In this document: piece by piece, positions 57,949 through 59,126 of the stretch
Numbering within the stretch: position 1 is the first letter of the stretch
How the letters are laid out: each line of letters begins with the position of its first letter
DNA from: Escherichia coli
GTDB lineage: Bacteria > Pseudomonadota > Gammaproteobacteria > Enterobacterales > Enterobacteriaceae
DNA: 64,000 nucleotides
Assembly (NCBI RefSeq): GCF_013315695.1
Contig: NZ_CP054353.1
Strand: one strand, 5' to 3'
Notes under the pieces: model-generated
The model's input: only the letters and a program-made list of their open reading frames with translations
The model's database searches: none
Told to the model about the DNA's origin: nothing
Translations under genes and position numbers: made by a program

Positions 57949-59126
57949 ATGGCTCTGAGTGATGTGAAGGTTCGTTCGGCTAAGCCTGAAGCAAAAGCCT
58001 ATAAGCTGACCGACGGTGAAGGCATGGTTTTGCTGGTTCACCCTAACGGCTCCAAATACTGGCGGCTACGTTATCGCTTTGGCGGTAAAGAGAAGATGCT
58101 GGCATTGGGGAAATACCCCGAAGTGTCGTTGGCGGATGCCAGGGCACGCCGGGATGAGGCTCGTAAGCTTTTAGCTAATGGTGTCGATCCCAGTGAAAAC
58201 AAGAAAGCTGTTAAGGTAGAATAGGAACAAGAGGCGATAACGTTTGAAGTAGTCGCCAGAGACTGGCACGCCAGCAATCAGAAGTGGTCGGCATCGCATA
58301 GCGCTCGTGTTTTGAAAAGTCTGGAGGATAATCTCTTTACTGCTATCGGTAAGCGGAACATTGCGGAACTGAAGACGCGGGATCTTCTTGTACCCATTAA
58401 AGCAGTCGAGTCATCCGGGCGGCTCGAAGTTGCCGCCCGTTTACAGCAGCGTACTACCGCGATTATGCGCTTTGCCGTTCAGAGCGGCTTAATCGACTAC
58501 AACCCCGCGCAAGAGATTGCAGGTGCGGTTGCTACGGCGAAAAGACAGCACCGTGCAGCTCTTGAACTGAACCGTATACCTGAATTACTTCATCGCATAG
58601 ATCACTATTCTGGCAGACCGTTAACTCGACTGGCGGTTGAACTCACTTTATTGGTTTTCATCCGTTCGAGCGAGCTGCATTTTGCCCGCTGGTCAGAAGT
58701 AGATTTTGAAACGGCTATGTGGACAATCCCAGGTGAGCGTGAGCAACTGGAAGGAGTCAAGCATTCTCAGCGTGGCTCGAAGATGCGGACACCACACCTT
58801 GTACCTTTGTCGCGGCAGGCCCTAAGTATTTTGGAAAAGATCAAAAGCATGAGCGGAAATTGAGAGCTGATTTTTGTGGGCGATCACGATCCACGTAAGC
58901 CGATGAGTGAGAATACGGTGAACAAGGCTTTGCGCGTAATGGGGTATGACACGAAGGTCGAGGTTTGTGGGCATGGCTTCAGGACGATGGCTTGTAGTTC
59001 GTTGATTGAGTCGGGATTATGGTCGAGGGATGCGGTAGAGCGGCAGATGAGTCACCAGGAGCGTAGCTCTGTGCGAGCCGCTTACATCCATAAGGCGGAA
59101 CATCTTGGGGAGCGTAGGTTGATGTT
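57949..59126 (+). pseudogene. intB: P4-type integrase intB, decayed: two in-frame stops and 3' end interrupted by IS911
   Basis: One frame carries MALSDVKVRSAKPEAKAYKLTDG... with TAG at 58222..58224 and TGA at 58861..58863; reading frame runs into the IS911 left end. Confidence 0.8.

Follow-up and report, generated by a model that had tools for sequence, protein, structure and literature searches.

The integrase frame next to the leuX-type repeat in the 64,000-nucleotide Escherichia coli sequence analysed here (the window) is very probably the non-functional remnant of a P4-family integrase (intB′), left by an old leuX island and bearing three lesions, the earliest of which would be its junction with an insertion sequence. 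The frame opens with the ATG at 57949-57951, and direct reading of 57600-59500 together with translation of 57949-59144 followed it as a single frame through position 59126. The first in-frame stop lies 273 nt (91 codons) and the second 912 nt (304 codons) past the start; the single integrase frame, the TAG at 58222 and the TGA at 58861 had been proposed from the sequence alone, and reading and translation verified each of these coordinates. With 28 C-terminal codons missing and stops at codons 92 and 305, the gene is not an uninterrupted open reading frame, while the two stops compare with about 18 expected by simple arithmetic in a chance frame of 392 codons. When compared to the CAG and CGA alleles of sister genomes, both stops are C-to-T transitions. 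The second one falls in the catalytic domain, between box I and box II and upstream of H342-x-x-R345, H369, and Y379. Because one stop occupies the linker and the other the segment between the boxes, any product would contain few of the catalytic residues or none. RefSeq annotates the identical gene of strain EcPF7 as a pseudogene ("internal stop; incomplete; missing C-terminus"), and nothing contradicts this status. In the mechanism that we propose, an IS-associated deletion or recombination between IS copies would have put the left end of an IS911-type element in place of the last 28 codons; CGA would then have become TGA at codon 305, ahead of both the catalytic Tyr and the His/Arg of box II, and CAG would have become TAG at codon 92, just past the arm-binding domain. 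The coordinates of the features are collected in Table 1.

Table 1. Features of the leuX region and the integrase remnant in the window (positions count from the first letter of the window).
Feature	Position	Strand	Remarks
Intact leuX, tRNA-Leu(CAA)	47271..47355	+	ARAGORN; annotated tRNA-Leu in EcPF7; current target, attL of newer island
Direct repeat copy 1, leuX 3′ 43 nt + 2 nt	47313..47357	+	45-nt repeat
Newer 10.4-kb island	47358..57707		Between leuX and old remnant; bounded by 45-bp leuX repeats
Newer-island tyrosine integrase, 427 aa, intact	56310..57593	-	DUF6538 + Phage_integrase; not P4-type; WP_001311342.1
leuX′ fragment, direct repeat copy 2	57708..57752	+	1 mismatch (C at 57734); displaced tRNA 3′ end
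Terminator-like hairpin and T-run after leuX′ 3′ end	57764..57790	+	Consensus match only
intB′ pseudogene, P4-type integrase	57949..59126	+	392 and two-thirds of about 420 codons
TAG, codon 92	58222..58224	+	CAG (Gln) in relatives; linker, arm-binding to central domain
CAT, His244	58678..58680	+	Arg (CGT) in NCTC9064, MSHS 472, and intact outgroup
TGA, codon 305	58861..58863	+	CGA (Arg) in 5 sister genomes, CGT in intact outgroup
IS911-type element (IS3 family), 1246 bp	59127..60372	+	Both inverted repeats; orfA/orfB; A6G slippery site
5′-truncated IS66-family element (partial ISEc23 tnpB + transposase)	60373..62360	+	Abuts IS911 right end

The assignment to the P4 type, also part of the original prediction, held at the level of protein similarity, domains, and position. 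The remnant shares 57.4% amino acid identity with P4 Int (440 aa) across its whole length (100% query cover, E = 2e-140), both have the arm-binding, central, and catalytic architecture, and intB′ starts, codirectionally, 199 nt past the tRNA 3′ end (leuX′ end, 57750; ATG, 57949). Searches of the translation against Pfam identified an Arm-DNA-bind_3 domain (DUF4102, arm-type DNA-binding) at residues 3-87 (E = 1e-29), the central-domain Phage_int_M at residues 99-193 (E = 1e-26), and the catalytic Phage_integrase domain (PF00589) at residues 206-384 (E = 1e-19). The motifs FIR239SSE, SK278MR, H342GFR345, SH369, and AAY379 are all encoded and are shared unchanged with the intact homologue and K-12 IntB, the catalytic roles of R239, K278, H342/R345, H369, and Y379 being assigned from the known box I / box II pattern. 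Unlike P4 Int, which is functional and undamaged, intB′ is interrupted by two stops and lacks its C-terminus; the remnant is not followed by P4 satellite genes. The satellite phage P4 also integrates at leuX. The integrase family is very large and enterobacterial (Enterobacterales), with full-length members of 411-423 aa; among the matches listed in the protein search, the nearest cluster representative was 96% identical (421 aa), and none was a full-length version of this exact allele at 99% identity or above.

As an intact reference we used the integrase gene adjoining leuX in strain BMH-17-0027 (WP_032267573.1; 1263 nt, 420 aa), to which all 1178 nt of intB′ align at 88% nucleotide identity. 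This alignment to an intact integrase is gap-free, and the stops appear in it as point nonsense mutations, in agreement with the original prediction. The two genes differ at 114 codons synonymously and at 13 non-synonymously, two of the 13 being the stops themselves; such a ratio is characteristic of a gene that was long under purifying selection and was inactivated recently.

The leuX-adjacent integrase of E. coli K-12, intB (b4271; "cryptic prophage PR-Y"), occupies the same locus in the same orientation, about 199 nt past the leuX 3′ end, and its product is 78% identical to intB′ over 392 residues (about 73% at the nucleotide level). The K-12 gene is also a pseudogene, so the decay of an integrase next to leuX is a known phenomenon. 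Its lesion, a TAG at codon 19, is unlike those of the window, and K-12 intB retains the 3′ end that intB′ has lost. Moreover, the K-12 gene lies directly beside an intact leuX, whereas an island is interposed in the window. An IS911 copy and the fec operon are situated downstream of intB in K-12 and likewise in EcPF7, the near-twin of the window. On these comparisons, intB′ would be the positional homologue of b4271, representing another allele or island lineage.

The window and EcPF7 are 99.9% identical over 18 kb. Position 57734 of the leuX′ fragment is C in the window and T in both the intact leuX and the EcPF7 fragment, so the two sequences are not identical. According to the RefSeq annotation of EcPF7, the island between leuX and leuX′ carries genes for an Eco29kI-type restriction-modification system, the Kiwa genes kwaA and kwaB, a recombinase-family gene, and genes for a winged-helix protein and an integrase. 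The 427-aa integrase gene is located at the island end distal to the intact tRNA gene and is transcribed inward, a mirror of the P4-type layout. Near the same end, 13 nt (57664-57676) reproduce exactly the anticodon stem-loop sequence of leuX at 47295-47307 (GCAGTTGATTCAA); they are followed by 31 unrelated nucleotides and then by the 45-bp repeat, giving a longer, interrupted leuX-like stretch.

In CREC_5, F9792, and MSHS 472, a complete leuX occupies the position of the leuX′ fragment, directly upstream of the same remnant, and the 10.4-kb island is absent; the fragment is thus the 3′ end of what was once a full leuX beside intB. Since leuX directly adjoins intB′ in these sister strains, the island is a later arrival and intB′ derives from an earlier occupant, which bears out the earlier attribution of the gene to an older leuX element. 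Other strains carry other elements at this position. JP538 has, between leuX and intB′, a P4-like satellite with an intact P4-type integrase and genes for SIR2-family and ATP-binding proteins; strain 219 has a P4-like satellite with an intact integrase and retron St85 upstream of intB′; and in MS15047 the Kiwa island and a P4-like satellite, the latter with an intact integrase and a death-on-curing toxin, are arranged in tandem (loci L013, L005, and L012, respectively). Taken together, these arrangements mark leuX as a hotspot of serial accretion, which keeps gaining elements, each of them widening the distance between the tRNA gene and intB′.

Downstream of the remnant, EcPF7 is riddled with insertion sequences and carries lpxM, virK, capU, a polysaccharide deacetylase gene, fecIRABCDE, and agn43. 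A review lists leuX islands of the "MsbB2, VirK, Fec, Ag43" kind, for example PAI-ED1a-leuX and PAI-CE10-leuX (PMC7545054), and the EcPF7 genes match this content, lpxM being the MsbB2 of the review. The likeness to PAI-ED1a-leuX and PAI-CE10-leuX is one of gene lists, the window itself holding only the first 5 kb past the integrase, which are rich in insertion sequences. The old island would thus be of the MsbB2/VirK/Fec/Ag43 type and related to KpLE2. The literature retrieved on intB, KpLE2, and leuX consisted of general island papers. Among leuX islands, PAI II536 possesses a highly specific P4-like integrase (PMC3202238), and the same paper cites earlier work that showed the importance of flanking repeats and of an active integrase for the excision of islands. 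As no full-length integrase could be made from intB′, the old island would be unable to drive its own excision. A leuX-type right-end repeat was found neither in the rest of the window nor in the next 49 kb of EcPF7; the right end may lie further away or have been lost. Its absence from these 49 kb agrees with an immobilised island, without being proof of it. That the old island is "fixed" is a reasonable inference, and the intact P4-type integrases that satellites carry at the same tRNA gene in sister strains could in principle act on it in trans.

At its 3′ end, intB′ meets the left repeat of the IS911-type element at 59127, exactly where the original prediction placed it; TGAAGTGGCACACTGAATTTGGCCACC begins at this position. 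The inverted repeats (59127-59153 and 60346-60372) are imperfect and have TG...CA ends, and over its first 75 nt, counted from 59127, the element matches the left end annotated for K-12 IS911B without a difference. Over the element, identity to K-12 IS911A/IS911B is 93-97%, as compared with four fragments and no complete reference copy. The gene orfA extends from 59199 to 59498, and orfB can be read without interruption in the -1 frame from the A AAA AAG slippery site to 60364. Just past the slippery site (59450-59465), 3 nt (TAC) are missing in comparison with K-12 IS911A. RefSeq labels the transposase "frameshifted"; a true frameshift is unsupported, the -1 frame being open from the A6G motif and the only deletion being one of 3 nt, and the label may reflect only the programmed frameshift. 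In CREC_5, the part that is 99.5% identical to the window element is named "IS3-like element IS911 family transposase" by RefSeq.

The element has GTT as its left and AAC as its right flank, the latter within the ISEc23 tnpB fragment, and there is no 3-bp target duplication. The complementarity of GTT and AAC, which adds to the length of the inverted repeat, was considered as a possible true end of the element and rejected, as K-12 IS911B starts at TGAAGTGG and the right flank differs in CREC_5. A tblastn search covering the window, loci L001 and L007, and 63 kb of EcPF7 gave no trace of the missing 28 integrase codons. A simple insertion of IS911 into intB was therefore rejected, there being no target duplication, an ISEc23 right flank, and no C-terminal remnant; the lack of a duplication, the foreign flank, and the absent C-terminus point instead to a junction formed by an IS-associated deletion or by recombination between IS copies. 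Beyond the element lies a nested graveyard of insertion sequences (60373-63743), composed of the cut ISEc23 transposase, then ISEc45, and then further IS66-family and IS100 fragments. ISEc45 (IS110 family) is intact at 62361-63494 on the minus strand.

Comparison of the junction element among strains (window 59127-60372; L002 7420-10030; L008 5297-6538; L007 10095-11336) indicated a certain level of variation. The copy at the shared junction in MSHS 472 and NCTC9064 is 94.5% identical to that of the window (a difference of about 6%), and the CREC_5 copy is a hybrid, 93.9% identical over its first 329 bp and 99.5% over the remainder. These differences between the aligned copies suggest recombination between IS911-like elements. 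EcPF7 bears a second IS911-like copy upstream of fec, whereas in MSHS 472 and NCTC9064 one IS copy links intB′ straight to the fec region, and both arrangements accord with a junction made by deletion or recombination. A segment of about 20 kb with a BCCT transporter gene, lpxM, virK, and capU is located between the two IS911-like copies of EcPF7 and is absent from MSHS 472.

Short diagnostic queries, run over 5,426 complete genomes of E. coli, gave the distribution of the lesions. The context of the TGA at 58861 is exact in 250 of them, and its CGA version is matched exactly by five. Among the 251 genomes found to carry the allele in the query for the TAG at 58222, the TAG context is exact in five (EcPF7, JP538, MS15047, EC24, and NCTC9080); the other 246 differ from it by one base, which is C (CAG) in every allele fetched. 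The intB′/IS911 junction is identical in 47 of the 5,426 genomes, including all five with CGA. NCTC9064 and MSHS 472, the two CGA genomes that were fetched, have this same junction together with Arg244 and a stop-free integrase, annotated as a normal 397-aa CDS (WP_096835737.1) and retaining the catalytic Tyr; in both (L008 and L009, each at 4119-5312) the frame runs five codons into the insertion sequence and terminates after …RRLMFEVAH. The missense change R244H is present in all five TGA alleles examined. A second TGA lineage, represented by F9792 and strain 219, has lost one base pair at 58245-58247 and contains, at 59053, an IS3-family element other than the IS911-type one. Overall, the variants among near-identical alleles comprise two nonsense, three missense, two synonymous, and one frameshift change, a spectrum in line with a constraint that was relaxed once the first lesion was present.

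Because five genomes have the junction and no internal stop, we infer that the truncation by IS911 came first. The likely order, obtained by parsimony from a handful of fetched alleles and the allele counts and not from a phylogeny, would continue with R244H and the TGA and end with the TAG in a small sublineage. In the final branch, the window's small sublineage would have acquired the TAG, and a larger sublineage the frameshift and the second insertion sequence. Recombination is evident at the locus, where the 5′ third of the MSHS 472 gene is divergent and the insertion sequence is a mosaic between strains, and it could confound this order. We regard as unlikely, though deserving some weight, the reverse course, in which an intact gene would first have acquired the TGA, with the IS911 junction of the window's lineage and the 59053 element of the F9792 lineage as later, independent events. 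The TGA is far commoner (250 genomes) than the junction (47), and a recombining locus would favour such a course; it must nevertheless account for an identical junction beside the ancestral CGA in five genomes, both of the fetched ones also having the ancestral Arg244, and thus requires that the same junction formed twice, that both changes reverted, or that recombination introduced a patch. In addition, the element at 59053 lies upstream of 59127, and its associated deletion would have erased an earlier IS911 junction.

Some residual activity of the remnant is conceivable in two versions, although we consider it very improbable. The 91-aa open reading frame ahead of the TAG (57949-58224) might be expressed, bind arm sites, and interfere with P4-type satellites at leuX; it retains its start codon, has a purine-rich AAAGGA upstream, and encodes the complete Arm-DNA-bind_3 domain. 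Alternatively, the fossil leuX′/intB′ junction might serve as a secondary attachment site shaping the accretion of defence-carrying elements upstream. The TAG that creates the short frame is found in only five genomes, other alleles decay in other ways, and there is no sign of selection on the frame. The production of a near full-length integrase through readthrough or recoding of the stops (amber suppression, selenocysteine insertion, or programmed readthrough) is next to impossible. The amber suppressor supP arises from leuX, an origin that makes readthrough conceivable, but the leuX of the window has the wild-type CAA anticodon, TGA alleles gain further lesions (a frameshift, a second stop, missense changes) in the manner of neutral decay rather than of a maintained recoding site, and the 3′ end of intB′ is absent whether or not the stops are read. 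Equally negligible is the reading of both stops as sequencing or assembly errors in a gene intact but for the insertion sequence, which the allele counts over 5,426 genomes rule out: the stops are substitutions and not homopolymer indels, the TGA is the same in 250 independently assembled complete genomes, and the TAG recurs in five from various countries and hosts, so that the stops are true, as had been supposed.

The preferred reading, a decayed integrase truncated first at the IS911 junction, describes a gene whose condition was already known, since the identical gene has a pseudogene annotation in RefSeq and K-12 intB offers a parallel case. It is a textbook example of the ordinary decay of an island integrase after the island has settled. 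Its value is that of a landmark, as intB′ marks the boundary between the old, IS-riddled leuX island and later arrivals, and its nested lesions (the junction in 47 genomes, the TGA in 250, and the TAG in five) provide cheap lineage markers for this locus.
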